Origin: Naegleria gruberi | Taxonomy: Eukaryota | DNA: 64,000 nt | NCBI GenBank assembly: GCA_000004985.1 | Contig: GG738873.1 | Direction: 5' to 3' (one strand) | Shown: in pieces, positions 1 through 15,288 of the stretch | Layout: each line of letters opens with the position of its first letter | Numbering within the stretch: position 1 is the stretch's first letter | Notes under the pieces: model-generated | What the model saw: the letters and a program-made list of their open reading frames with translations, nothing else | What the model was told of the DNA's origin: nothing | The model's database searches: none | Program-made: the position numbers and the translations under genes

Positions 1-1
1 A

Positions 2-751
2 GAATATTTCTACCTGTACGGAGGGGTGGTAAATAACACTATCTCTAATGCTATCCATAGATGCAAAACATCTGATCTGGAAAGTGGATGGGAGCTTACT
101 AGATTCAAACTTCCTTATAATGTATCAGCTGGTCAATCATTACTGGTAGATGACTTTTTCTATATTTTTGGTGGTCTTGTTAGTCTAAGTGATGACTCTG
201 ATAGCCCAAAGTTAAGTCTCAACGTTACTGACATGATTTTGAGATTCCACATCTCTAATCCCTTCACTCCTGAAATACTATCACAAAGATTACCACTAGG
301 TGTTTATAGTGGTCAAATTGCTAGAGTTAAGGATTATTTGTACATATTTGGGGGAAGAACTCAAGATCCAAATGCACCATACAGCGATATCTTGAAAGCG
401 TCCTATTTCAAACCTACCGTATTTGAAAACTCTTACTCTGTTTTGCCATACCAAGTTACAGATGGTTCGTTAATAGTTACAGAAAACTTTGTTGTTATAT
501 TTGGTGGCTTTTACAGTGGTCTTTACCCATACAATGCAGGAAGATTCAACTATGAAATTGTATCAACCCCATCTGATGAGCCTGTTGGTTCTTGGATGGT
601 GACTGATTATAAGATTCCAGGATTAATGAGGGCGACCCCTTCAATCATGGGTTCAACACTTTCTCTGTTCGGAGAGGATGTCAGAATGGTCAACACATTC
701 CCTCTCTCCAACAGAACTTTCACCATGTTTAACTGCACATTCTTGTTGTAA
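2..751 (+). CDS. Kelch-repeat beta-propeller protein, C-terminal portion; the 5' end lies outside the window
   Basis: The frame is open from position 2 (EYFYLYGGVVNNT...). The track 'M' at 26 is a GTG. Kelch blade motifs recur about every 50 aa (FYLYGG, FYIFGG, LYIFGG, VVIFGG) with W/Y-rich strands, giving at least 4 blades. Several N-x-S/T sequons are present. TAA stop at 749-751, with AATAAA shortly downstream. Confidence 0.6.
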   Translation, partial: EYFYLYGGVVNNTISNAIHRCKTSDLESGWELTRFKLPYNVSAGQSLLVDDFFYIFGGLVSLSDDSDSPKLSLNVTDMILRFHISNPFTPEILSQRLPLGVYSGQIARVKDYLYIFGGRTQDPNAPYSDILKASYFKPTVFENSYSVLPYQVTDGSLIVTENFVVIFGGFYSGLYPYNAGRFNYEIVSTPSDEPVGSWMVTDYKIPGLMRATPSIMGSTLSLFGEDVRMVNTFPLSNRTFTMFNCTFLL

Positions 752-1152
752 TAAAATTGTAAATTATTCTGTCATCAATCAATGACCTTTGTTGAACAGA
801 AAATAATTGTAATGTGATCATTTAATAGATTGAAGGTACAAAATGTTTTGTTTGGTCCTTTTCTAATTAAGGAGTAGAACTAAAACAGAAAGTGTTGATG
901 GAAAACTTTAAAACCAACAAACTCAAAGAAGAATAAAAAAAAACCAATAGTTTAATATAGAATGCTTTCTAATATGAGGGACGATGAGACCACAGAGAGA
1001 GGTGGTTTTGATGATTACCAGGAACCTTTTGACCAATTTCTTGAGAGCAGAAAAAGAAATTTGTCAGAATTATATAGAGATGTACTATAGACATCCAAGA
1101 TGAAGATCAAGTTACGGTTTCGGGATCGTCGAGAAAAATTTACTCAACACGT

Positions 1153-1398
1153 GTGTCTATTAAGAAATCTGACATTGAACTGAATTCCCTAGATGACATC
1201 AGTGACATGCCGCTACCACAACCTTTTTTTAAGCTAATAGAGAAATCCAAAATTCTATATTTGGATATTGGTACTGGTTCTTTCAAGTCTGGTAAGACAA
1301 TCACGGGTGAGTTCATACGGAGTAACTTTCATATATTTGAAAATGGTTTGCAATATTTTCCATACCAGCTACTATACCACAAGGAAAAGAAAGAATAG
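1153..1398 (+). CDS. ORF carrying an actin-fold (ASKHA/Hsp70-type) phosphate-1 motif; probable 5' exon or tandem N-terminal duplicate of the following ORF
   Basis: ILYLDIGTGSFKSGKT resembles the Hsp70 IDLGTTxS phosphate-1 loop. The track start is a GTG; the first in-frame ATG is at 1204 (MPLPQPFFKLIEKSKILYLDIGTGS). Strong donor-like GGTAAGA (1291) and GGTGAGT (1306) lie just after the motif. I could not find a phase-compatible splice to the next ORF. Confidence 0.3.
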   Translation: MSIKKSDIELNSLDDISDMPLPQPFFKLIEKSKILYLDIGTGSFKSGKTITGEFIRSNFHIFENGLQYFPYQLLYHKEKKE

Positions 1399-1975
1399 TG
1401 AAGAAGATACCGATTCACAAGGACACACTATGTACTTGGACCTAGGACACGGTACGACTGATTATACTGTCATGTCATATGATCAAAACCAAAAGAAATT
1501 CATTTTGAAAGATAGTGGTGGGTGGCCTTCTGGACTCTCATGGATTCAAAATTTGATCATGAGAGAGAAGAATTTAACTTTTCAAGAAGCCACCAAACTA
1601 CTAAATAAGCAATTCGACTCACTAGATTCCAATCCTGTTGACGGTATTGCTGATATTCAAGAAAAGATTTATAATGAGTTTGAGAAATTATTACAACCTT
1701 TGTTGTTGGTAATTTTTGAAAATTCAGTTACAAAGGTTTGCTTTGTAGGTGCTTTCATTCATTGCCAATACTTTAGAGAGATTATTAAGAAAATAATTTC
1801 ACACTCTTACATTTCCAAATTTGTAGAGGAAAGAAGAAAGTATTTCAAGGAAGAATTCAAGTTAAAGAAGTTGGAAAAGTTTTCCATCTTCTTCCCTCCA
1901 AAGGCAGGTGCTAGTTGCATCATTCAAGGCTTGATGCGTATGGTTGAGAATTCAAATGGACTCAACCACTGTTAA
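1268..1975 (+). CDS. Hsp70-like truncated ATPase (actin fold); the likely true start is the ATG at 1430
   Basis: MYLDLGHGTTDYTVMSYDQNQKKFILKDSGGWPSG parallels the Hsp70 N-terminus IDLGTTYSCVGV...DQGNRTTPS. The C-terminal part (VCFVGAFIHCQYFREIIKK...FFPPKAGASCIIQGLMRM) parallels Hsp70 LVGGSTRIP...NPDEAVAYGAAIQAAIL. The middle of the nucleotide-binding domain is absent, so this is about 180 aa instead of about 380. Confidence 0.45.
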   Translation: MVLVLSSLVRQSRVSSYGVTFIYLKMVCNIFHTSYYTTRKRKNSEEDTDSQGHTMYLDLGHGTTDYTVMSYDQNQKKFILKDSGGWPSGLSWIQNLIMREKNLTFQEATKLLNKQFDSLDSNPVDGIADIQEKIYNEFEKLLQPLLLVIFENSVTKVCFVGAFIHCQYFREIIKKIISHSYISKFVEERRKYFKEEFKLKKLEKFSIFFPPKAGASCIIQGLMRMVENSNGLNHC

Positions 1976-2227
1976 TTGAAAAAGAATCAACCAGTGACAA
2001 TTCAGTTCCAGTGATGTTACAAGAGATTGCCGAAGAGGGGCAGAAACTTGTTCTTACACCCACATGGGCCTCCTATGTTATGCACGTACTTCAAGATTTC
2101 GAAGTATTCGTCATTACATTGAGCTCTTGTATTGACCCTGAAAGCTTTGAAAATATTAATTTTGATAATTTCAAATACCTTGGAATAAACTAAGCTCCAA
2201 AGATTGGCAGCTGTCACACCCATGTTT

Positions 2228-2836
2228 GATAGAGACTCCATAAGAACAACCAAGAATAATTTTTTGGTCAATGCAGTCATTGATGCAGAAAAAGTGAGAC
2301 TCAACTTCTTCTTTTCTCATGTATCTCACTATTACATGAGTGTATTAGACATTAATAGAACTGGTAGAGTAGAACATATTCCAGTCTGTGGTATTGAACT
2401 ATTGGTATTCAAGGTTCGTGAAACTGAAACCAAGACATGGTATGGTCGTAATTATTATGTGAAAACCATTATTAGAGTGTGTTGCTCCAACCACTTAAAC
2501 AATTCACAAAATCTCATTCCACAGGAATATATTGGCATAATTTCTCCACAAAAGAAAAATGGTAAATATGTTACTGAACTTATTGGTGAGGATAAACCTG
2601 GTGATTATGATACTGTGAAAGCTCTACTGGATTCATTATGTGTTGGTTGTTCCGCAGAGCTTGAGGAAACCAACACCATTCATACAGTGTCCCCACACAC
2701 ATTACCTAAATACCGACGAGCTTTGCAAAATAATAAGCTAATTTGTGGTAATGTCTGCAACAAATGTTACTCAAAATATTGCAACTCATTTAGGACAGAT
2801 GCTTCCTTTTTAAAGAAAAAGAAGTCTAAAAAATAG
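2228..2836 (+). CDS. Hypothetical protein: Cys-rich C-terminal cluster and polybasic tail
   Basis: The track ORF starts on TTG at 2204; the first ATG is at 2228 (MFDRDS...). C-terminal motifs: CVGCSAELEE...LICGNVCNKCYSKYCNSF (C-x2-C ... C-x3-C-x2-C-x4-C) and a KKKKSKK tail. TAG stop at 2834-2836, followed by an A/T-rich 3' region with AATAAA. No recognisable family. Confidence 0.35.
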   Translation, partial: DRDSIRTTKNNFLVNAVIDAEKVRLNFFFSHVSHYYMSVLDINRTGRVEHIPVCGIELLVFKVRETETKTWYGRNYYVKTIIRVCCSNHLNNSQNLIPQEYIGIISPQKKNGKYVTELIGEDKPGDYDTVKALLDSLCVGCSAELEETNTIHTVSPHTLPKYRRALQNNKLICGNVCNKCYSKYCNSFRTDASFLKKKKSKK

Positions 2837-3324
2837 TCTTGTAAAATACTTGTAAATAATAAATTAAAATAATATATCAAATTGTTTAAAATGGTACCAT
2901 TTTTTCATTGAGGAAAGCTCGCTTCTTCTAATGAATGTTTCTCATGGAATAGATAATTATTTGGTAGATAATGGATGAATGACATGATGAAAATCTGATA
3001 ACAAATATGATGTTTATCAAATAGTACCTCTTTTAATATTCAATGTTCATCATCTTTGGATATCTTTGTTCTATTTCACCCATAATTCGCCAGCCCGCTA
3101 ACAGTTTTCACAAATCTGCCACCCATGTAATGGCACTCCATCCTTCAGGTGGATTTCTTCTCATTATTCAGTTCTTCTTTCTTGGTTCATACTTCAGGTG
3201 GTAAATCTTCTTTCTCCTCCTTTAATACTTTTTTTAACCAATAAAAACGAAAACAATGAGCAAGTACGCCCTTAATGATTGTGTTATAGTCTGTCTAACA
3301 AACCAATCAACAGAACTTTCAAAA

Positions 3325-3925
3325 ATATTTCAAAAATATTGGATCAACATCAGGTACATCATGCCTCTGTTGATTCTTGGAGTAGTTTCACATCTATTAA
3401 CTCCAAGAATTTCACCACATCATCTCATCATCATTTAAATAGTAGTATTAATAGTAATTTTTGGAATTTAATTGTTCATCATGATTTGGAAATAATTTTA
3501 TTATTCGGAAACATTCAAGTTGGTACATCATCATCGGAACAACTACCAACCATCATCATTGTTATTTATCATCATTACAATAGTAATATTTGTGGAAATA
3601 AATCTGATAATAGTAATATTTTAGTGAAATTCAATATTTTTCACTAAAATCATCATCACTACCAGATTTATATGATAATTTAGAAAACTTTCAATCTAGT
3701 ATTGTTCAGCATGGTCGATATATATTAGGTAAAATTACTTCCGAACATTTCCCTATTGGTTATCATAATGTTAGGTACATGTATATATTTCAACACCATA
3801 TCTCAACCTGTACTTCACCAACTTGAAAAATGTCTTTCATCACTACTATTCAAATACATAATAAACAATATATTTATTATCAGATTTTCCTAGTTTTGTG
3901 TTTTTACCAACTTCGGGTATTCATA
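3325..3925 (+). repeat. Direct-repeat copy A (about 600 bp, His-codon-rich CATCAT stretches); homologous to 8957-9560
   Basis: Collinear blocks are shared with copy B, for example gtttcacatct, aatagtagta(tt)aatagt, ccaaccatcatca, atttgtggaaat(a)aat, ttttcactaaa(a/t)tcatcatca, agtattgttc(a/g)g(c/a)atggtc(g/a)ata, tgtacttcaccaa, ataataaaca..atatttattat. About 70-75% identity by eye, same orientation. Confidence 0.7.
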
Positions 3926-5195
3926 GTCACCAATCATTATTCATGCCAAAAGTACACAGTCAATCTTCTTGGAACATTAATAAACTTTTATTAGTACTAT
4001 TGCAGATGTACAATATCAATTATTTCGTATTGTTTCGTTGAAATCATGAAGATCTTGATTTTTCTGTTTTTAATTAAATTTCACATCACATACACCATAT
4101 TTGTTGATAGTTACATATTCGCATTACCAAACCGAATTTATTTAGTACGCATAAATTTTATTCAATTTTATTGGTAAAATTATGCGAATTATTACGAATA
4201 AAAATACTATTTATTATTGTATTTTTAAATTAATTAACTGAAAATTATTGCCAATATTTATGGGTAATAATTCATGCAGAATGAAAATTGGTTGAGAGCA
4301 ATAAGACCTGGAAATCTGATCACACTGCACACACTATTAATCTTTGAAAGAAGAAGTGGCAACTGAGTGAATAAATAATTTGAACATAATGATTCGTAAC
4401 ACAACTCTCCAAGCACAAAAATTTCATCACAACAAACAACAGTATCCCTAATTGAGATATCTTCCCAATAAATCTATCGAATTGAATATACATTCCAACC
4501 TTAAGTGAGGATTTTCTAGCATAAAAAGTGCACAATCTTCAAAAATGTGTTGCCCAATGATAATTCGGAAATTGGCCATTTTCTTTTACAAAACAATACG
4601 GATTGAAATTTTGTAAATTGGATCAAAAGTTGAAAATAGATTCTTCTTTCTACAAAGGAGGTTTTTATTGTAAATTAAAAAGCTTTTTTCCATTTGGAAG
4701 AGTATACTTTGTTGATATTTCAATTAAATCATCCATTGCTTACTTTTAAATCTCTCTTCTTCCCAAGATTGTTCGTTTACACCTTTCCTTGCAATTCTAT
4801 TTTGTTTAGAATCTGCAATTTTAGGTAATTCAGGTAATTTCTCAACAATATCTTTCATTTCTGAATGCTCTCTCCTTTTAAATGAGTGTACACTCGCTTC
4901 AGGGCATTTAACAAGGTATTCATCAAATATTTTTGAAAATTAAGGTTGATTTTCTTTGTTTTGTATATTCTTTTTTTCAAAATATTCTTTTAGTGTTAAG
5001 CACATGTGTTTTGTGATTGCTTGATCATTCGTTCAAAATTAATCTCAAATGAAATTGCTGCAAATCCATCTTCTTGTTTGTATTCAAAATTAATCATTGC
5101 TTTTTTCCTTTCGAGTAATATGTATAGTAACAAGGAATTTCGCTAAAAGTTGATTCAGGGACCATGTATTTCAACATATCTCTAAGGAAATCGTA

Positions 5196-5580
5196 CCCAC
5201 TTTTACAAAATATCAAACACCAAATCATATCTGTGGCAATGTTTTTCCCACTTTTTTCTAGTGCTCCCTCTTTAAAAGAGGATATGCTTGGTTAAAGTCA
5301 CCACCACAAAATTCAATATTCGATATTAAGTAGTTGAGCGAAAAATCACTTTTCCCAAAAAGGTATATGATTTCATAACTCACTAATTATCTCAATTAAA
5401 ACAAAAGATTAAATATTCAAAAATGACCAGGATATAGTATACATGATATGAAACCATCCATGCAAAATTCAAGATTTATACCATGAATCAAACTACATAT
5501 TTCCTTTTAAAGAGGGTGCACTAGAAAAAAGCGGGAAGATATGGCACATCCGATTCTTTGTGAAATATTTCCGAAACTGG
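5196..5580. repeat. Foldback / MITE-like inverted repeat (about 85-bp arms, about 210-bp loop)
   Basis: The reverse complement of 5196-5285 (..catatcctcttttaaagagggagcactagaaaaaagtgggaaaaacattgccacagatatgatttggtgtttgatattttgtaaaagtgg) aligns with 5496-5580 (catatttccttttaaagagggtgcactagaaaaaagcgggaagatatggcacatccgattctttgtgaaatatttccgaaactgg) at about 80% identity. Confidence 0.5.
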
Positions 5581-6111
5581 AATTATTGAAAAGGGAGTTT
5601 CAATTGTATTAGCAATCAAATTAACTTTCCTGTCTTTTCACCTTCAAACATTGCTTTGAACAACTTACTGTAATTTTCAACAAGGAAAAAATTCATCAAG
5701 TTTGATAAAAAATAGAAAAGTTTCATCTACAATATTCTTGCATCTGCTCACACAATTCCCACCACAAACATGTTGATGGTAATATCACATCGTTGTTTCT
5801 TGTCCCTTTCTGGTTGGAGGGCCGTCAATTGCAGGAATTGTTGATTATTATTGGATGGTATTATTGTTGTTGGTTTAACACTTAGTGGAGAGGCTACAAC
5901 AAATTTAATCATCCCAAAGTGACTCTACTCTTCCAATCTATTCAAGTTTCAACATTGTGTGTTGTGGATATATTACATTATTGAGATACACACATGTATT
6001 ATTGAGATGATTAGTTGAGTGGATGATATTTCTTCAGTTAATTCTGGAATGAAGAAGGGAAAAACACTGGAAATCATTTTGGATAAAGTTATGTGATTTT
6101 AAGAGAATAGT

Positions 6112-6283
6112 AACATAGCAAGACTAGCTGGTGGAGAATTTTTAAGCTTACCATCCCAGCGCTGGGATGGTCAAAACCAGCTAGACAACATCAAAAACTC
6201 GCGACTAAAAATAATCAGCTGGTAAAAACTGACTTCGCAGATTTCAAGTAGCCAAAAAACAATTTTCCAGTCTTGCTATGTTG
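6112..6283. other. Compound nested palindrome, including a perfect 20-bp palindrome ccatcccagcgctgggatgg (6151-6170)
   Basis: Outer inverted repeat: aacatagcaagactag (6112-6127) pairs with ccagtcttgctatgtt (6268-6283), 15/16. Inner repeat: (ga)ctagctgg(tgg) pairs with ccagctag(aca). Centre: the perfect palindrome ccatcccag|cg|ctgggatgg. The region is GC-richer than its surroundings and lies about 400-550 bp upstream of the YR start. Confidence 0.4.
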
Positions 6284-6670
6284 AGGATAGGGATGAACCT
6301 TTTAATATTTGTCATAAGTGATTGAACAGTATTGTTAATTTGAGTTGATTAATTTTCCAATTAATTGTGTCAAGAGTTGATTTTTTGAAATAAGCTCTTG
6401 CAAAGTTAACATGTATATTCTAGAGAATTCCCATTGGTGGCAGTAACAAATTTTTTTGTCAATACACAAATTCAAAGTTTAAAAAATAATTGTGAAAAAG
6501 ATAAAATGTTATTTTTCTTTACTGTGCAACAGTGGCAAAACATTTCCACCACGAGTGAGGTACGAACGAGCTGGTGGATGATTTTTGCGCGATTTGTTGC
6601 GAAGTAAGAACAGCACTTTTTCTCACGAACAAATATTCCACTGATCTCTGGATATTATTCATTCAAAAAA

Positions 6671-7942
6671 ATGTCTCAAGAGGTTGATGATCTTGCCAGC
6701 GACCTGTTGCTAGAAGAGTTTGATAGTCTCACTGTAACAGGGGAGCAGTCTTTCAACTTTGTTCTTGGAGAAAATAGTATTCAAGCAGTCAAAACAAGGA
6801 AAAACTACAACAATCACAATATGGCACTCAAGGATTTTGCTCTTGAAAATCCAGATGTAAATCTGCAAGATTTACAGGTTGGTTGGTTGAAAGATTATTT
6901 TCAATTCCTCCATCAGAATAAGAAAGTAACTGGTCAAACATTATGGCAATATCACTCCAGTCTTGCAAAGCTGTATGCATGTAATTACAATCTTTCGATT
7001 AAGAATGTTGCCAATTATTCAGTTCTGTCTAGTTTCATCAAAGAATTAGAGAAAAACAGTGTAGACAGCACCGCAGGTGCTGAAGATATTCCATTAAGCA
7101 CAGTAATTGGTGTTCTCTCTCAATACCCAGAAGATGGATCAAATATTATGAAAAAGGCTTTTTTTGTATTCACCACAATAAGCTGTAAGAGATGTGATGA
7201 TGCTCATTGTTTACAATTTCATCATTTAACATTCAAAGAAGATTCAATCGATTTTGATATCTCACAAACTGCAACCAATCCAACTTCCAAAAAAACCAAG
7301 ACAGATGCCTGCACTGGTTGTATTGTCAAAAGCAATGTTCTAGAAATATGTCCCTTTAGAATTTTTAAGAAATACACTGATCAAATTGAAGACAAGAAAG
7401 GTCCTGTATTTAGGAGATGGGTTGGTAAAAAGGGTGGTGGTTATTTCGGAAAACAAGCAGTTGGTATTAACACCATGTACAGTTTCTTCCAAGATATTTT
7501 GAAAAGTGTTATTGAAGTATGTCCAGAGGACATACAAATTGAAGAAAGAACTGGTGCTAGAGCACCAGAACACCTTCGTTCCAACAAGACATCCACAAAA
7601 ATTGGTCTTGCTCGTTATACAGGACACACAGGAAGAAAAACAGCTGGTACCATCATTTCCACCATTGCTGCAATGACTGATCTTGAAAGAAAGAAATATG
7701 GTGATTGGAAGAATATGAAAACGGTTGAAACCTACAGCAACAACAATCCTGAAACCAGAAAAATTGCTAGCAAGAAGGTTGTTGATCATTTATCAGATGC
7801 TTTTAAAAGATCCAATGATGAAGAAGAAGAAAGTCAATATGCTCCTGTAGCAAAAAAGAGCAAGTCTTCCGAATCAAGCTTCAGTAATGATGGAAAGACA
7901 TTCGTCTTCAAAAACTGCTCAAATATCACAATAAACTTCTAA
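6671..7942 (+). CDS. Tyrosine recombinase (site-specific integrase, Cre/Crypton-like); intact 423 aa
   Basis: ATG start in an A-rich context, TAA stop, no interruptions. N-terminal integrase SAM-like core-binding domain (..KNYNNHNMALKDFALEN..LQVGWLKDYFQFL..TGQTLWQYHSSLAKLY). Catalytic hexad recognisable by Cre spacing: R174 (ISCKRCDD), K~210 (SKKTKTD), H319-x-x-R322 (TGHTGRKTAG), W346 (YGDWKN) and Y355 (TVETY). H to W is 27 residues and W to Y is 9, versus 26 and 9 in Cre. Confidence 0.8.
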   Translation: MSQEVDDLASDLLLEEFDSLTVTGEQSFNFVLGENSIQAVKTRKNYNNHNMALKDFALENPDVNLQDLQVGWLKDYFQFLHQNKKVTGQTLWQYHSSLAKLYACNYNLSIKNVANYSVLSSFIKELEKNSVDSTAGAEDIPLSTVIGVLSQYPEDGSNIMKKAFFVFTTISCKRCDDAHCLQFHHLTFKEDSIDFDISQTATNPTSKKTKTDACTGCIVKSNVLEICPFRIFKKYTDQIEDKKGPVFRRWVGKKGGGYFGKQAVGINTMYSFFQDILKSVIEVCPEDIQIEERTGARAPEHLRSNKTSTKIGLARYTGHTGRKTAGTIISTIAAMTDLERKKYGDWKNMKTVETYSNNNPETRKIASKKVVDHLSDAFKRSNDEEEESQYAPVAKKSKSSESSFSNDGKTFVFKNCSNITINF

Positions 7943-8956
7943 CATTTTTATTTCCAGTAAAAAGTGGTGTTATGCACTCATTTATGCCAGCACAGTTGGA
8001 ACTCGGAACAAGAAGAAATAAGCAAGGACGCTGTTATGCACTCACTGTTCGGAGAGGATTATGTTAACTCGCGAGCAGTCCATAACAGGTCCTGGAGTGA
8101 GAAAAAACAATTTAATTTAATCGTAAGTTAGATTTTAATAGCTAATAGTTTGTTTAATTTTAATGTTCAGATTGATGAAATAGTGTTGAACTGTTGCCGA
8201 GCTTATAAGAAGAAGAATTTGAAAGAATTGACGGTGTGCCGGTAAATCCTGTCTAACGGGATCCGTCAGATGTAATAAGCTGTCAAATGGGACAGTCAGC
8301 AGTAAGAGGGAGCAAGAATGGAATTAAGGGAAATACTAAAAATTCTCAATTGTAGAATAATCACTAAAATCAAAGATTACACTCTTTCTGTCTCAAATTT
8401 AAGAATGACATGATATAATTTGACTAAATTGATTAAAACACTGTTGGGGAACTACCCTTCTTTTTTAGAGAAGTTTCCTTCTCAAACAATTCAGGTAAAT
8501 AGTAAACTGTGGAAAGTTTAAATTTGATTTTTTATTGAAAATGAAAAATATGGATTAATTGATATGAGTGTGATTACTATAATGTGCAAGATGTTGAAAA
8601 AGTTGGTTATCTTTGAAATTCAATTTAAAAGTGCACTAAGAAAGCAAATGCTGAACTAGATGAGTTGATACAAATAAACGGTGAGACGGGCAACGGGATG
8701 AACGGGATTCAGGCGTTTCTTATTCTAAACGGGAGATTCTCTCCGCTTAATACTACAAGGTGGCAATTCAAATATGGAGAGAGAGCTTAGTAACATTAAT
8801 AAAATGAATGAGACATAATTACTTTTTGAATTTTCCTTTTATATTTGAAACTTTGACTCTGCTTACTTTCAATTGTTTGTTTAATATGGCTTGCTTGACT
8901 GAAGAATAAGCAATAACTAACACATCCAAACATCACCAGACTGGATTTTGAAGAAA

Positions 8957-9560
8957 AAATATTTCAACATCTAGTACGTGATGTACTTTGATGATTTACG
9001 GAGTGGTTTCACATCTTTATACCACAATAATTTCAGCTCGTCATCTCTACATCATCTATATAATAGTAGTAATAGTGATTTTTTATTGGAAAATTATCAT
9101 CATGAAATTAGAAATTATTTTTCATCATGGAAAAATTCATGTTGGTGATACCATCATCTGATCATTTACCAACCATCATCAATGATATTTTCCATCGATA
9201 TAATAATAGTATTTGTGGAAATTAATTTTCAGTAATTTAATTTTAGTTGAAAATCACCATTTTCACTAAATTCATCATCAGTGTGGAATCTACTGTACAA
9301 ATTGGAAATCTGTCAACATAGTATTGTTCGGAATGGTCAATAGTATCAGAAAAGATTTTGTCCGATGACTTTTGGTCAAGTTATGATAGGGAAAGGTATG
9401 TGTGAAATTTGAAAATACACATTATACTACCCATCATGTACTTCACCAAATCAAAAAGTTTCTTCTAGTAGTACTATTTAAATTGATAATAAACATCATA
9501 TTTATTATAATTTATTCCTTTTCTTTTGTGTTGGTCAAGTTCCGGTTGGGTTGACTAAGA
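8957..9560 (+). repeat. Direct-repeat copy B, homologous to 3325-3925
   Basis: Same collinear anchor blocks as copy A, offset by about 5.62-5.63 kb. Copy B lacks the long His-rich ORFs seen in copy A, so those ORFs are not conserved coding sequence. Confidence 0.7.
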
Positions 9561-10071
9561 ATTGGTTATTTACTCGCCCAAATTAAATTTCCAAATCATG
9601 TAACTTTCCCATGTATTAGTAAATATCAAATTAATAATAAATTTCACTTTTTTTTTAATTTTTTATATAAGGCAGTCCTTAACACTCTTTTTTTCCCTTA
9701 ATTCTAAATAACTCTTGGATCAGATGACGAAACCTGAATTTTTTGAATAATTATGGATATATATAAATAATGACAATGCTACTAACTGTAATTGACATGT
9801 TTTATTATTTGCGAATAAACTTGAAACAAATCTATTCAAAGATTTGCTAATTTGTTAGTTGAAATTACAAAATCAAACAATGAAACTTGATCTGGTAACA
9901 TATATAAATGCACACATCGAGTGGGGAAAGTTTCATGAAATAATAATGTGAAATTTGATCTTGGGAATGAAATCGTTAAGAACAAGTAGATTAAAGCCAA
10001 CAACAAATGGAATAGCCTATTTTATTCAATTCATATTAGAACAATTTTAGAATGTTACTGTGTTATTGAGC

Positions 10072-10716
10072 TTAATATAATTTAGACTTCAAATGTAACA
10101 TTTCCATCATCTTTTGCAAGCCTTTGGATTGAATTTCTTGTAGACGAGGATAGTTACGAGAGTTGTGAATGACAGATTCAAATCGAGCCATCAAAACTTG
10201 AACTCTATTCAACAACGCCTCATTGGAAGAGTAATGACGAAGTGTTTTGGTTGAGACAAAACTTATGACATCTCCATCGGATAGTCTATCACCAACTTCG
10301 TAGTTACGTCTAATCTCCTTGATAGTAGTTAGACCCCAATGTTTACCAGTGAAATCCTCATCAGCGGATTCCTCATCAAGGTCTTCATCAAGTTGATTAG
10401 CTTGTTGCAGAATAGGAGGAACAGCTTCAAGATGCTTTATTCTCTCACCCAAAGAAGTGATGGCGTTGAAAATAGCATCAAGGTTCTTTTCAGAACCAGC
10501 TTGGTTGTTATCCAAGGTTTTGCTTGTTGGGTCAACCACAGAGGGGAGTGAAGCTGAGCTACCATTGTCAGTTACTAGGATGTAACCTGACTTGTAGGTA
10601 GAAGTTGAAGATTTGCTTACTGAAACTCTTTGACGAATGTTGGAGATATTCGCTTTGCTTGGTGTTTGAACCATTTCAATATACTTAATTTTTTTGAGCA
10701 TAAAATTATTTATCAA
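10072..10716 (-). CDS. Hypothetical protein (about 214 aa, Ser/Thr-rich N-terminal part, acidic middle); probably the terminal exon of a minus-strand gene
   Basis: Long ORF of non-repetitive composition ending at a TAA. The track start is a TTG; the first ATG gives MLKKIKYIEM. Upstream on the minus strand a GAC-AAG|GTAATA donor-like site (about 10823) and ..ATTGAG|TTG acceptor-like site (about 10717) could join the 10775-10963 ORF. No family recognised. Confidence 0.45.
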   Translation of the reverse strand: MINNFMLKKIKYIEMVQTPSKANISNIRQRVSVSKSSTSTYKSGYILVTDNGSSASLPSVVDPTSKTLDNNQAGSEKNLDAIFNAITSLGERIKHLEAVPPILQQANQLDEDLDEESADEDFTGKHWGLTTIKEIRRNYEVGDRLSDGDVISFVSTKTLRHYSSNEALLNRVQVLMARFESVIHNSRNYPRLQEIQSKGLQKMMEMLHLKSKLY

Positions 10717-10778
10717 CTCAATTTTATTGTTTACAATTTGTCGAAATGCTAACGTTGCATCGTTCCTCGCAACTCTAC
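10628..10778. repeat. About 150-bp segment (5' end and first codons of the 10072-10716 gene) duplicated at 13243-13390
   Basis: ..ctttgcttggtgtttgaaccatttcaatatacttaatttttttgagcataaaattatttatcaactcaattttattgtttacaatttgtcgaaatgctaacgttgcatcgttcctcgcaact.. is near-identical to the 13243-13390 copy. Confidence 0.7.
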
Positions 10779-10963
10779 ATTATTGAATCTTCTGTAGCCT
10801 TGTTGATTGTTGGATTGATAAGTATTACCTTGTCCTTGGTTGAAGTTGTTGTAGTTGTAGCCAGCTTGTCTAGTATTGTATCTAGTGAGGAACTTACGAA
10901 AATTAAGGGTTCTGCTAGCCCATTTGCTGACTTTTTCAATAGTTTCTGTGTTTGAATGGGCAT
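10775..10963 (-). CDS. Possible upstream exon of the 10072-10716 gene (MPIQTQKLLKKSANGLAEPLIFVSSSLDTILDKLATTTTTSTKDK...)
   Basis: Short ORF whose 3' part contains AAG|GTAATA, a consensus-like donor, in frame. Otherwise unsupported. Confidence 0.2.
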   Translation of the reverse strand: MPIQTQKLLKKSANGLAEPLIFVSSSLDTILDKLATTTTTSTKDKVILINPTINKATEDSIM

Positions 10964-11826
10964 TAAAAATGACTTTGAAGCAGCTGAAAACTTCTCTAAC
11001 AGCTACAAATCAGGAGGTTCACTTAACCAAATCACCTCCAAACAACAAGAGAAGACGATTAAATCTGCTGAAAAAGTAAAAACAGCAGAAGATTAGATTT
11101 AACTCAGAAATATTCTAAATAAATTCAAATCCTTGAAGAATAAGTGGTAAATCAAGAATATCACTCTCTCAAACGCTTGCAGATTTCAATGACTCACCAA
11201 ACATTCTTTGGTAAGAGTCGATGATGTGGTTTTTAAACCAATCATCTAGTTCATCAGCAACTCTTGCACTTTTACCAGAAACCTCTTCAGATGGGTTGGA
11301 CTCAAACAATTCCATCGAAGAAGCGAGAGTAGAAGTACTTTGTGAACCAACCTTGGCGTTGTTTGAGTCTTTGTCAGGTGATATCTTTTGCTGATTGTTC
11401 TTTTTCGTGTCTTGAAGGCATAGCAGAACTATTAGATGAATTTGAGGTGGAAGGAGTTAGAATAATAACTCGTTTCTCGCTACCTGCAGAAGGTGAGCTA
11501 AGGTCTTTCGTTTTCTTGTTGTTCTTTGGTGTAGTTGGTGTTTTGTAATTCTAGAGTGAAACAATTTGTTGAACGTGTAGAATGTATGTGTTCTGAATGA
11601 TTATAATAAATTGAATGTTATTTGCTTAAATTTATTGAGTTTCATGTTCAAAAAATTTATCTAAACTAAATGTCTTCAAGAAACATTTTAACTTCTGCTT
11701 CTAAAGCAAGAAATGATAGGTCCCACCCTGTTCTTATCGAAGTTTACTGAGATAAAGTAGTGTTTCTTGAAAACAACAATTGAATAAACTAATAATAGAA
11801 AGTATGCTCAAAAAAATTGTCATACT

Positions 11827-12954
11827 ATGGTCGCTAAGAAGCCTCAAGATATTGACTCCTCTTTATCTGATGAAGATCTCCCAGCAGTTGAAGTAGAATA
11901 CCTCATAACACTAGTGAAAGCAAGAAAACAACAAGCTGCTAAGAAGCTTAGAAAGTTAAAGGCCATGTCACCTGTAGCTAATAGAAATAAGCGCAAACAA
12001 TTTACTTCAGTTTCATCATCTAACAGTGCCTTAGATGATGGTATTTCAACTGTTGTTTCCAGTTCGTTGTTAAACAATTCAACATTGTTGGATAGTTCTT
12101 CAACTGCACCCTCTTCGTCAAACAATTCGTCTTCTTCCAATTCAGGTAGAGATAGTTTTACCAGTAGTTCATCTGAACATGATATCATGGTGATCAAAGC
12201 CCAAATGCAAGAAATGATTGGAGTTTTGAGAACCGTAACAGGAAATATCTCTGAACTTACTAAGAAAGTTCAGGAGAGAGAAGAAGAATCAGATGATGAT
12301 TTTGTTAATCCAGAAGCTATATCTTTAGAAGTTTGGTTACGTCAAACTTATAGAGACCTTAGAAGTTCTTACAATGTTCCTTCATCTATTGGAGATGATT
12401 TATTACTTTCTGCAGTATCCTCCGAGATACTTAAAGACCGTAAACAAGAGGAGACCAAGAGAAGAATTCAATATTTGCTCCTTAAATACAAGGATGTGAT
12501 TTCCAAGTTTGCCCCAGACATTAGATTGGATGAGATTAACAGTATTGGTTATTCTAAACTAGTAGAGTTAACTCAAATCAAAATTGAATTGTTGGAATAT
12601 GCATTGAATTCTCCACTTGATTTTACAGTCATGACAGAGATTACAGAACTTTGTAGAATGATTTGCAAAGTTGAAGCCCTCTTCCTTAAAGAAGGTTTAC
12701 AAGTTTCCACTTTCGATGTTGGTAGAGAATTCCTTAACAGATACATTTCTACTAATAGTTTCGAAACTGCTGCCGAAAGTGAACTTCATAATATTAGAAC
12801 AACATATCATTACTACAAAGCAACCAAGCAGCAACAAGGTCCAAAGGGAATTACCAAGAAGTATTCTAAGAAGAAACCGTTTCAAAAGAAAAACAATAAG
12901 GGTCAAGGAAACGATGGTAAATTCCAAGGAAAAGATAAGGATAAGTCAGAATGA
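11827..12954 (+). CDS. Hypothetical Ser-rich / Lys-rich protein (375 aa), intronless
   Basis: True ATG start (ctATGgtcgct) and TGA stop. The N-terminus is acidic with a basic stretch (KARKQQAAKKLRKLK). A long Ser/Asn low-complexity region is followed by a predicted helical C-terminal half and a polybasic tail (KKYSKKKPFQKKNNKGQG). No family recognised. Overlapping ORFs on the opposite strand are treated as shadows. Confidence 0.5.
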   Translation: MVAKKPQDIDSSLSDEDLPAVEVEYLITLVKARKQQAAKKLRKLKAMSPVANRNKRKQFTSVSSSNSALDDGISTVVSSSLLNNSTLLDSSSTAPSSSNNSSSSNSGRDSFTSSSSEHDIMVIKAQMQEMIGVLRTVTGNISELTKKVQEREEESDDDFVNPEAISLEVWLRQTYRDLRSSYNVPSSIGDDLLLSAVSSEILKDRKQEETKRRIQYLLLKYKDVISKFAPDIRLDEINSIGYSKLVELTQIKIELLEYALNSPLDFTVMTEITELCRMICKVEALFLKEGLQVSTFDVGREFLNRYISTNSFETAAESELHNIRTTYHYYKATKQQQGPKGITKKYSKKKPFQKKNNKGQGNDGKFQGKDKDKSE

Positions 12955-13130
12955 CTCTTCCACTAATAAAGATTTTTATCCAATCAAAGCAGGTTCTATA
13001 ACTGAATCACCAATTTGGTGAAACAGTTACCTGACTCTAAAACCCATTTGTCTCTAATCAATTTGTTACTCTTTTTATTATAATCTATGAAGAACATTTA
13101 ACTTGATAAATTTTTCAAATTATAAATATT

Positions 13131-13180
13131 ATTTCTCCAAATAAAACAATAAAGAATTTCGTTGATAAACCAATGGGTAG
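13131..13180 (+). repeat. 48-bp perfect direct repeat, copy 1 (atttctccaaataaaacaataaagaatttcgttgataaaccaatgggt)
   Basis: 47-48 nt identical to 13394-13443, separated by about 263 bp. Confidence 0.8.
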
Positions 13181-13242
13181 AAGCTCACTCAACATATTCT
13201 TCATCCAAAGGATGAGGTATGTTGCTCGGAAATGCTGCCTTT

Positions 13243-13390
13243 TAGGTCATTGACTTTATTCAGCAATGATTTTGCTTGGTGTGTTTACCATGTTTCTTAA
13301 TTTTTTTGAGCATAAAAATTATTTATCAACTCAATTTTATTGTTTACAATTTGTCGAAATACTAACGTTGCATCGTTCCTCGCAACTAGC
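13243..13390. pseudogene. Degenerate pseudo-copy of the 5' end of the 10072-10716 gene
   Basis: About 80% identity to 10628-10778. The reverse-complement reading has a 1-nt insertion (aatttttatgctc versus aattttatgctc) that destroys the ORF. It carries a consensus TACTAAC (13360-13366) followed by ..cgcaaCTAG on the plus strand. Confidence 0.55.
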
Positions 13391-13393
13391 CAT

Positions 13394-13443
13394 ATTTCTC
13401 CAAATAAAACAATAAAGAATTTCGTTGATAAACCAATGGGTTA
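13394..13443 (+). repeat. 48-bp perfect direct repeat, copy 2, abutting the stop codon of the YR relic
   Basis: Identical to 13131-13178. The last 3 nt (tta, 13441-13443) are the reverse-complement TAA stop of the minus-strand YR fragment. Confidence 0.8.
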
Positions 13444-13680
13444 GTCCAGAGAAAATAGAGTGTTAGTGAAATTCTTGCCAGCTAGGCCTTCAGATCTAAG
13501 GTAAGGAAATAAACTTTTTTCCTTTTTATGTCTTGCACCGACCATTAGATCAGTTGTAGACATACCCTTTCTGAGTCCTTCTGTGATAGCACCTATTCTA
13601 AGGCTGTGACCTGAGACTGTTACGCCTTGATCTACTATACCCACTGCATTCTTTAGTATTTTTGAAATACCATCTGAATC
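13441..13680 (-). pseudogene. Tyrosine-recombinase C-terminal catalytic fragment (integrase/DIRS-like H-x-x-R...H...Y variant); 5'-truncated relic or terminal exon
   Basis: The open frame is only about 80 codons (..DSDGISKILKNAVGIVDQGVTVSGHSLRIGAITEGLRKGMSTTDLMVGARHKKEKSLFPYLRSEGLAGKNFTNTLFSLD*). GHSLR is the box II H-x-x-R. The second His is 26 residues after the first, and the Tyr (FPYLR) is 9 after that, which is exact integrase/Cre spacing. The track start is a GTG and a stop lies immediately upstream. AT-rich non-coding DNA and microsatellites follow on the 5' side. Confidence 0.6.
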
Positions 13681-13780
13681 TTAGTAGTACCGTTTCAGTT
13701 TTACCTAGTTGTAATAAACACCGGAAATTTATTTATGTTTTTAACTATAAAAGCTGAAAGTAGTCAAATGTTGATATTTG

Positions 13781-13782
<2 letters not shown>

Positions 13783-13812
<30 letters not shown>
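13783..13812. repeat. (AT)n microsatellite, about 15 units
   Basis: Seen directly in the sequence. Confidence 0.9.
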
Positions 13813-13815
<3 letters not shown>

Positions 13816-14301
13816 AATAGATGTTAGATATTAGTTGTTCCATTTATTTTTAAACCTATCACTCCATCAACCTCCATGAATCTAGTTGTCTATTTCTTGT
13901 TGTAAGAGTTTTTCTTTGTTTTAATAAACAACTATCACAACTCTAATTTTACTACTTCTAATAGCAGTGTTTTTGTAATATTTTTACAAAGTTTGTTCTT
14001 TCTTTGAATTCATTTTCTTTGGATTTACCATAAAGATTATTACTTCCAATCAATAATCTTCATAATGATAATACCAACTTTAGAAGATTTTTAAAAATTA
14101 ATGGTTTTTTATATTTTATATATTACTTTGTTAAGCTTTTCTAAATTTCAAATCGATAAATTTTTGAAAATTTATTTTAGCTTCTTAATTTTCAATTAAT
14201 TTCATTATCTTTATATCTAAATCACTTTTAAATGCTTTTTCAGATAAACCAATTAAACCACCATCTTATAAACCAACTTGCAACAAAAATTTTTTCGGAT
14301 G

Positions 14302-14327
14302 TATATATATATATATATATATATATA
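14302..14327. repeat. (TA)n microsatellite, about 13 units
   Basis: Seen directly in the sequence. Confidence 0.9.
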
Positions 14328-14366
14328 AATGCATGCGAAAATTTTTATTTTATTTATATTAAATAT

Positions 14367-15288
14367 CTAATATGACAAACATATCCCACCAACGCATGTA
14401 TGAAAATTCGTATTTTTNNNNNNNNNNNNNNNNNNNNNNNNNNNNNNNNNNNNNNNNNNNNNNNNNNTATTATATGTGAAATTACCAATTGTAATATTAT
14501 TGCTTGTAAAGTTACTAATTGTAAAGTTACTAATTGTAATGTTATCACTCGTAAGGTTACGGATTGTTAAATTAGTATATGTGAAATTACCAATTGTAAT
14601 GTTATCACTTGTAAAGTTACTATTTGTAAAGTTACCAATTGTAATATTATCACTCGTAAGGTTAGTGTTTGTAAAGTTACTGCTTGTTGAATTAGTATAT
14701 GTGTAATTACCAATTGTAATATTATCACTTGTAAAGTTACTATTTGTAAAGTTACTGATCGTTAAATTAGTATATGTGTAATTACCACTTGTGGTATTCT
14801 CATATGTAAAATTATAATAGGTAAAATTGTTGAGTGTCAAATTCGGTATTTCCGTAATTCTCATCACCTCGTTTTCTGGATAATTTGCATCATTTTGGCA
14901 ATTTTGTCCCGTAATAGAATTTCTAAAACATTTACAAAAATCAGGCTTGGTACAATTACCATTTCCACTGCAAACAAGTGGATCTTCTGATTTAACACCA
15001 AAACAAATTGGTAAAGAACAATTTGATCCATAATATCCTTCTCTGCAAGTGGTTACATTTAAGAGACCTGTTGCATTCTTCTTGGAGCAAAGATACAAAT
15101 TATCACCTGTTGGGTTTGTACAATCAATTTCAAGATCAAGAGTTCCATTAATCTTTGTATTATTACATTTACCTTCAGGATTGGTACATGTCGCCATACT
15201 AACATTTGTTTGACACTGTGTGCCAATAAAACCAACTTTGCAAGAACATTGATTTGGTTTCTCACAATAACCATTTCCTGAACAAACC
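14367..15288 (-). CDS. Secreted or surface glycoprotein: EGF-like Cys-rich domains followed by a tandem N-x-T sequon repeat stalk; partial (runs into gaps)
   Basis: The frame is open from the 15289 gap, which lies upstream of the track 'M' at 15197. At least 3 EGF-like modules: VCSGNGYCEKPNQCSCKVGFIGTQCQ; CTNPTGDNLYLC..TCREGYYGSNCSLPIC; CSGNGNCTKPDFCKCFRNSITGQNCQ. About 40 N-x-T/S sequons follow in about 7-aa-period repeats (NFTNSNFTSDNITIGNFTYTN...). The gene is interrupted by the 50-N gap and ends ..HTCVGGICLSY* at 14367. Confidence 0.6.
14418..14467. other. Assembly gap (50 N) inside the glycoprotein gene
   Basis: Run of n. Confidence 0.95.
14468..14830 (-). repeat. Coding tandem repeat (about 21-nt / 7-aa period nested in about 75-120-nt higher-order units) encoding the N-x-T sequon array
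   Basis: Repeated blocks: ttgtaaagttact(a/g)(a/t)ttgtaa(a/t)gttatcact(c/t)gtaa(a/g)gttac.. and tatgtg(a/t)aattaccaattgtaat(a/g)ttatcac. The assembly gap sits at the repeat edge, consistent with collapse. Confidence 0.75.

Follow-up and report, generated by a model that had tools for sequence, protein, structure and literature searches.

The minus-strand segment running from 13680 to 13130 is, with a probability of roughly 93%, the 5'-truncated 3' end of a Naegleria gruberi DIRS-order (tyrosine-recombinase) retrotransposon. It lies in the window, by which we mean the whole stretch of 64,000 nucleotides that was analysed; real sequence occupies positions 1-15288 (GC approximately 0.33), with a gap of 50 Ns at 14418-14467, and all positions beyond are N. 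The relic spans 551 nt and lacks approximately 3.7 kb of a unit of about 4 kb, namely the 5' repeat copy A1, the gag and pol genes and 223 of the 302 codons of the tyrosine recombinase (YR). A largely deleted DIRS-like retroelement had been among the options raised in the preliminary description of this DNA, and this is what the comparison with the parent element bears out: the parent carries a reverse transcriptase (RT) and a putative methyltransferase (MT)-like domain, and these belong to the missing 3.7 kb. The finding itself is an ordinary one: a dead copy of an element type whose occurrence in this genus has already been published. Seven DIRS-like copies in six families have been reported for N. 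gruberi and left unassigned (PMC3266345, Piednoel et al. 2011), and 89 DIRS hits were obtained with RepeatMasker in N. lovaniensis (PMC6125883). The recombinase ORFs of the relic's family are already deposited as 'predicted proteins'.

The recombinase part of the relic is an open frame of 79 codons (13680 to 13444, minus strand), followed by a TAA stop at 13443-13441. Its translation reads DSDGISKILKNAVGIVDQGVTVSGHSLRIGAITEGLRKGMSTTDLMVGARHKKEKSLFPYLRSEGLAGKNFTNTLFSLD, with the motif-bearing part being VSGHSLRIGAITEGLRKGMSTTDLMVGARHKKEKSLFPYLR. GHSLR supplies the His and Arg of box II, ARH the His of the W/H site and FPYLR the nucleophilic Tyr; the box II Arg is separated from the second His by 22 residues and this His from the Tyr by 8, which is the register of H289/R292/W315/Y324 in Cre. 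An 80-codon frame with YR boxes II and III had been described before, and its coordinates, strand and 22- and 8-residue gaps are confirmed (79 codons plus the stop). Only H, R, H and Y are retained, as the box I Arg and the hairpin Lys fall in the missing part, and an in-frame stop lies just upstream at 13683-13681. When all six frames of the 15.3 kb are searched with the loose pattern HxxR-x20-26-[HW]-x8-10-Y, two occurrences are obtained (the relic frame and the ORF starting at 6671) against a mean of 0.11 over 300 shuffled controls. The strict motif occurs once in the window and in none of the 300 shuffles.

Pfam gave no match for the 79 residues at E-values up to 10, a word-indexed homologue search yielded zero candidates, and phmmer against the PDB aligned the tail to Cre residues 266-306 in the right register at E=1.3, which is insignificant alone. 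When 1.84 billion representative proteins were searched exhaustively with phmmer, 12 matches did emerge (best E=1.8e-12), all of them tyrosine recombinases of about 300 amino acids or longer ORFs ending in one. The tail aligns end to end with their C-termini, native stop included. When residues 224-302 of the N. gruberi predicted protein XP_002680026.1 (P0023, 302 aa) are placed on the window by tblastn, they cover 13680 to 13444 at 98.7% identity (E=6e-47), so that 78 of the 79 residues are identical to this C-terminus. Given the phmmer score and the match to P0023, the similarity reflects homology rather than a chance motif. The peptide thus belongs to a real YR, as had been proposed, and is not one devoid of significant matches.

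The recombinases in question form a family within Naegleria. A profile search started from the family alignment recovered named proteins of N. gruberi, N. lovaniensis and N. fowleri, and in N. gruberi XP_002680026.1 has a twin, XP_002673457.1. Five catalytic residues are invariant in the alignment (R142, K170, H248, R251 and Y283) and the sixth site is occupied by H or W: the N. gruberi members show ARH or TRH at this position and many relatives GRW. A His at the W/H site is a trait of the relic's family, with Trp in close relatives. The preliminary description had used His against Trp as a marker of separate lineages, an argument that fails since ARH/TRH and GRW coexist within one Naegleria family. 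As to the tyrosine recombinase superfamily (PF00589), the parent family shows its residue order and spacing, and family members also match it by profile and fold; the 79-residue fragment does not do so in Pfam. The Phage_integrase gathering score of 27.1 bits is exceeded by P0002 (38.9), P0018 (36.5) and P0022 (29.6), whereas the closest parents remain below it (25.8 for P0025 and 18.9 for the recombinase of contig L010) and P0023 gives no match. Cre accounts for the top 30 PDB matches of the AlphaFold model of P0023 (best E=7.7e-6), a model of moderate confidence only (pLDDT 60.8) with low TM-scores of approximately 0.25.

For the architecture of the parent we rely on metagenome contig L010, on further contigs from read archives and metagenomes, and on the sister species, not on the N. 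gruberi assembly itself; a metagenome locus scan with the family alignment returned just two short contigs, in which the termini are absent. L010 measures 4107 nt, of which the terminal 127 nt are identical at both ends, giving a unit of 3980 nt. Such identical ends are the signature assemblers leave for circles or tandem copies, and they could also arise from an A repeat (about 130 nt) that exceeds a k of 127. The contig encodes a gag-like ORF at 229-1299, identified as such by position and by homology among the elements only, and a pol ORF at 1166-3151 with matches to RVT_1 (E=4.7e-26) and to a Dam-like methyltransferase-type domain. The YR frame overlaps pol and is open from 1300 to 4056, its last 302 codons being the recombinase. 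The same gag-pol-YR layout is observed in L001, L004 and L005, in L002 and L011 from N. lovaniensis, and in L009 from N. fowleri. RVT_1 is also found in L001 (E=2.5e-25), L002 (1.2e-18) and L004 (1.9e-23). The Dam-like match follows the RT in the pol of L010 (4.6e-5), L001 (1e-4), L002 (9.8e-5) and L004 (6.4e-4), in each case below the Pfam cut-off of 28.1 bits.

All seven relatives with at least about 2.7 kb of upstream sequence (L001, L002, L004, L005, L009, L010 and L011) have an RT-bearing pol directly upstream of the YR or overlapping it. The N. gruberi gene model P0025 points in the same direction, as its first 27 residues (MLIITPLSELQDKFETSNFLVVQVHGK) recur, by eye, near the C-terminus of the L001 pol ORF. 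The combination that defines the DIRS order, RT and YR in one unit with a gag-like first ORF, is seen in the parent units, whereas RT is absent from the relic itself. The parent belongs to the DIRS-order retrotransposons; it is neither a Crypton nor an exon of a host gene. The intact unit of about 4 kb consists of a gag-like ORF, a pol with RT, presumably RNase H and a putative Dam-like MT-type domain, and the YR ORF. Its ends are formed by split direct repeats in the order A1 ... B1-A2-X-B2, in which A corresponds to the 5'UTR together with the opening codons of gag, and B to 49 nt that begin within the YR stop. Within N. lovaniensis the L002 element differs from L011 by an extra insertion of approximately 1.65 kb at 8236-9892; part of it (8258-9045) is a 94-99% inverted duplicate of 5515-6325, located 2 kb upstream of the element.

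In the window the 3' half of this arrangement can be followed base by base. From 13680 to 13260 the sequence equals L010 at 419 of 421 nt, and both mismatches (13670 and 13625) are located in the YR tail, which corresponds to L010 3820-4056. This block opens with the final 237 nt of the YR ORF and its stop, continues through B and the pentamer TGGCT, and closes with the 5'UTR and 10 gag codons plus 2 bases. From 13519 to 13260 it is 100% identical to L010 1-260. DNA homology to L001 and L010 begins sharply at 13680, and the match to L010 stops abruptly at 13260. The native TAA stop of the YR ORF (13441-13443, minus strand) shares its last base with the first base of B1, a 49-nt repeat (13393-13441, minus strand) forming the first half of the B1-A2 junction. 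B1 is 100% identical to B2 (13130-13178) and to L010 4059-4107 and 79-127. Members of the family share a conserved core, TAACCCATTNGT, at the YR stop (L001, L002 and L003), and L004 carries ACCCATTTGT a few bases downstream of its YR stop; the TAACCCATTNGT core recurs in B2 of the window and on the plus strand at 13040-13054.

B1 is followed by the 5-nt linker TGGCT and A2, a copy of the 5' end of the element (together 13260-13392, minus strand), and B1-TGGCT-A2 as a whole matches L010 at 100% identity. A2 includes the 5'UTR and the beginning of gag, with its start codon at 13291-13289, 10 complete codons and 2 bases of codon 11. Part of it (13271-13387) resembles window positions 10654-10774, and the A regions of three Naegleria species share conserved ATGCTCAAAAAA and TTGTAAACAA blocks. 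Part of A is an imperfect inverted copy of B (34-47 nt, approximately 74%). Next comes X, a spacer of 81 nt (13179-13259, minus strand), for which blastn and tblastx against all fetched loci gave no match as to its origin; between species only faint similarity is seen in the spacer. The second copy of B (B2, 49 nt, 13130-13178, minus strand) is the 3' terminus of the relic; past 13130 the flanking sequence bears no relation to the parent. The earlier statement that only about 80 codons survive holds for the YR, of which just 79 codons are left, but not for the relic, which runs 311 nt past the stop to 13130.

The arrangement could in principle have another origin, namely a head-to-tail dimer or the junction of an integrated circle (YR end-B-A-gag start) that was later deleted on both sides. 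The block from 13680 to 13260 coincides with the junction of the L010 contig, whose identical 127-nt ends are what assemblers give for circles and tandems, and it has sharp breakpoints at both ends. These points are outweighed by the two full-length N. lovaniensis copies. In L002, A1 (7076-7220) and A2 (12797-12941) are 100% identical, B1 (12736-12797) and B2 (13401-13462) are 98% identical, and the spacer X occupies 12942-13400 (459 nt). The second copy, L011, has another 5' flank and nevertheless contains A1, the B1-A2 seen in L002 and, of the L002 spacer, the first 101 nt. Since both share B1-A2-X despite different 5' flanks, the spacer is part of the element, and B1-A2-X-B2 is its normal 3' terminus. 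This terminus is not uniform across the family: L003 and L009 show YR-stop-B without A2-X-B2. As B2 is moreover found in the window at the place where it is expected, and the overlap in L010 can be explained by an A repeat (approximately 130 nt) longer than the assembler's k of 127, we regard the dimer or circle origin as improbable. An assembly chimera, in which a repeat close to the scaffold end would have produced an artificial breakpoint at 13680/13681 while the full element exists in the genome, seems less probable still. The window does cover the final 15.3 kb of a 462-kb scaffold, where an N gap and many repeats are present. The breakpoint, however, lies in contiguous sequence 737 nt away from the gap, N. 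fowleri L009 is likewise truncated at its 5' end, and fragmented DIRS copies are usual (200-300 fragments against 40 intact elements in Dictyostelium; PMC7192593).

Very little can be said for a Crypton-type DNA transposon, i.e. a YR-only element moving without reverse transcription. At the relic spot only YR sequence survives, and the N. gruberi gene models are stand-alone proteins of about 300 aa. Cryptons resemble the relic's family in being eukaryotic mobile elements that use a tyrosine recombinase, but they lack RT and gag, and the parent units have both: the RT-bearing pol stands beside the YR in all seven relatives named above, the P0025 model opens with pol residues, and in the window a copy of the gag 5' end follows the YR tail. 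The least credible option is a domesticated gene or host-gene exon for a recombinase-like C-terminal domain, which has in its favour 79 stop-free codons that are nearly identical to the parent. Directly upstream there is the in-frame stop at 13683-13681 without any homologous coding sequence before it, and two of the six catalytic residues are absent. Furthermore, the near-identity to the parent is equal over coding and non-coding parts and runs into the B and A repeats, which indicates a recent origin and not selection. The truncated DIRS-order element remains the preferred reading.

Three further known systems come close to this element. It resembles the PAT-like group (PAT, TOC and kangaroo) in having a gag-like ORF, a pol with RT and a putative MT-type domain, and a YR, and also in its direct split repeats, which place A1 at the 5' terminus and B1-A2...B2 at the 3' one (as defined in PMC3266345 and PMC7192593). 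The PAT-like order A1 ... B1-A2-B2 is seen as B1-A2-X-B2 in the window, with all four repeat copies in L002 and with A1, B1, A2 and the start of X in L011. It departs from that order by the spacer between A2 and B2 (81 nt in N. gruberi, 459 nt in N. lovaniensis), and the long overlap of pol and YR in Naegleria is a trait described for DIRS1. In the published description of DIRS1-type elements (PMC3266345) there are three ORFs, pol and YR overlap, and the catalytic domain is encoded in the 3' part outside this overlap. The Naegleria elements show the same three ORFs with the YR overlapping pol and its catalytic domain in the 3' non-overlap, as in Dictyostelium DIRS-1, and they also share a putative MT-type domain, an internal junction just after the YR ORF and a tendency of fragments to adjoin other copies (PMC3266345, PMC7192593). 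They differ from DIRS-1 in their internal junction, which repeats the termini in direct orientation (98-100% identity). Inverted terminal repeats with a complementary internal region, as expected for a DIRS1-like element, were not found, the only inverted resemblance being the one of approximately 74% between A and B. The repeats in Naegleria are thus of the split direct kind known from PAT and Ngaro rather than of the DIRS-1 kind with its complementary region. With Cre of phage P1 the relic shares the identical H-x2-R-x22-[W/H]-x8-Y spacing, and in the PDB it is Cre that ranks first, by sequence for the fragment and by fold for the parent model. The identity is only about 15%, however, His replaces Trp315 in the relic, and Cre operates outside retroelements.

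How intact relatives multiply can be sketched after the DIRS-1 literature. Their RNA would be reverse-transcribed (PMC7192593), the internal B1-A2 junction would serve in rebuilding the complete ends of the cDNA copy, and the recombinase would then insert the cDNA-derived copy, often into resident copies (PMC7192593). The relic itself cannot integrate, because it has neither the box I Arg nor the hairpin Lys and lacks a start and an RT; in all likelihood it has no function. We consider it non-functional debris that possibly still acts as a recombination or homology target for sister elements. With 419 of 421 nt the same as in the parent unit, the relic is young, and its truncation may have come about either by a deletion or by recombination at 13680/13681.

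The sequence upstream of the relic does not conceal the remainder of the element. It is AT-rich and contains microsatellites, as had been noted before ((AT)15 at 13783-13812 and (TA)13 at 14302-14327). The suggestion that this tract together with the assembly gap hides the missing part does not stand, as the tract (13681-14417) is without homology to the parent. The remainder was also sought inside the gap and this was rejected, both sides of the gap reading as one minus-strand ORF (14367-15197). This ORF has an EGF-like cysteine pattern, and the gap adjoins its repeat array: tandem repeats with a 15-nt period at 14468-14870, organized in higher-order units of 45-120 nt and encoding NxT/NFT sequons.

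Two further DIRS-type pieces are found within approximately 3 kb of the relic, which brings the count to three within 3.6 kb. On the minus strand, 10072-10785 is a separate piece consisting of an A1-type 5'UTR and the first 214 gag-like codons, truncated near 10083. Its protein is 76% identical to residues 16-181 of the L001 gag (E=5e-84) and its DNA 83% identical to the L010 gag, with 90% in the A region. With 76% protein and 83% DNA identity, this piece comes from a related but different subfamily than the relic. The possibility that the two are halves of one element was rejected: the strand order is wrong, and the identity to the parent is 83% for the gag piece against 99.5% for the relic. 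The other piece (11700-13097, plus strand) is an internally deleted DIRS-type element with an A-like 5'UTR, a gag-like ORF and a B-like segment (13040-13097), lacking pol and YR. Its ORF (11827-12954, plus strand) is intact, measures 375 aa and matches residues 95-243 of the L001 gag at 35% identity (E=8e-27). The element stands tail-to-tail with the relic, with 32 nt between them. Its gag-like protein is that of a divergent DIRS-type family, and the element may be a non-autonomous derivative that arose by deletion. No RT-coding sequence was detected by tblastn anywhere in the window.

The other YR-like ORF of the window (6671-7942, plus strand) is 100% identical to the N. gruberi protein XP_002676176.1 (423 aa), which is recorded on a scaffold of 461,873 nt. 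It has a SAM-like N-terminal domain (Phage_int_SAM_5, E=6.8e-7), and its catalytic motifs stand in register with the profile of the relic's family, albeit at an insignificant probability below 1%. In an index of 5.8 billion proteins its only relative is the protein itself, and the AlphaFold model made without an alignment is unusable (pLDDT 34.6). At the sequence level the ORF is unrelated to the relic's family. In agreement with this, the relic had been described earlier as something other than a decayed copy of the 6671 gene, and BLASTP between the two is empty, in addition to the profile comparison just mentioned. The ORF is bracketed by direct repeats of about 600 nt (3332-3918 and 8955-9546; 71% identity, 5.6 kb apart), which could be the termini of an independent YR element of Crypton-like or another type; the interval they enclose yielded no RT. 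The earlier idea of a locus that collects YR elements fits the several YR-element pieces present. Among the remaining features of the window are an inverted repeat (5245-5286 and 5496-5537; 42 nt, 88% complementary, 209 nt between the arms) that is MITE-like or hairpin-like, and a plus-strand ORF at 26-751 that encodes Kelch repeats (Kelch_6, E=3.5e-9) and probably represents an ordinary host gene at the left window edge. A tRNA scan of the window gave none.

It is tempting, though in our view rather unlikely, to read the three DIRS-type pieces within 3.6 kb at the scaffold end as the result of self-targeted integration, and, as a separate matter, to regard the Naegleria family as a distinct lineage of the DIRS order. 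Under self-targeting, the conserved ACCCATTNGT or B-A junction in resident copies would be the site at which sister elements recombine. Repeat islands would result, similar to the clusters of DIRS-1 marking the centromeres of Dictyostelium. To our knowledge, the centromere DNA of Naegleria has not been characterised. The features that would set a distinct lineage apart are the direct split repeats, the spacer, the embedded inverted repeat and the His or Trp at the sixth site. Adjoining pieces are also seen in other Naegleria species. In N. fowleri (L009, VFQX01000016.1) the 5'-truncated DIRS-type copy at 8466-10516 abuts a LINE-like gene (4839-8450), and two tandem A-like segments lie in reverse orientation approximately 1 kb downstream of the copy (11500-11938), so fragments cluster in this species too. 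In N. lovaniensis L011 a B-like segment (1284-1340, 89% identical to B) is located 113 nt upstream of A1; it is possibly the tail left by an older copy, in keeping with insertion beside resident copies.

Taken alone the relic is of little import, and its practical value lies in annotation. XP_002680026.1, XP_002673457.1, XP_002674599.1, XP_002679188.1 and their relatives should be annotated as transposon recombinases instead of host genes, and the gag-like ORFs at 10072-10716 and 11827-12954 as genes of DIRS-type elements. The A1 ... B1-A2-X-B2 architecture could, in addition, help to decide whether the Naegleria elements are DIRS1-like or PAT-like.
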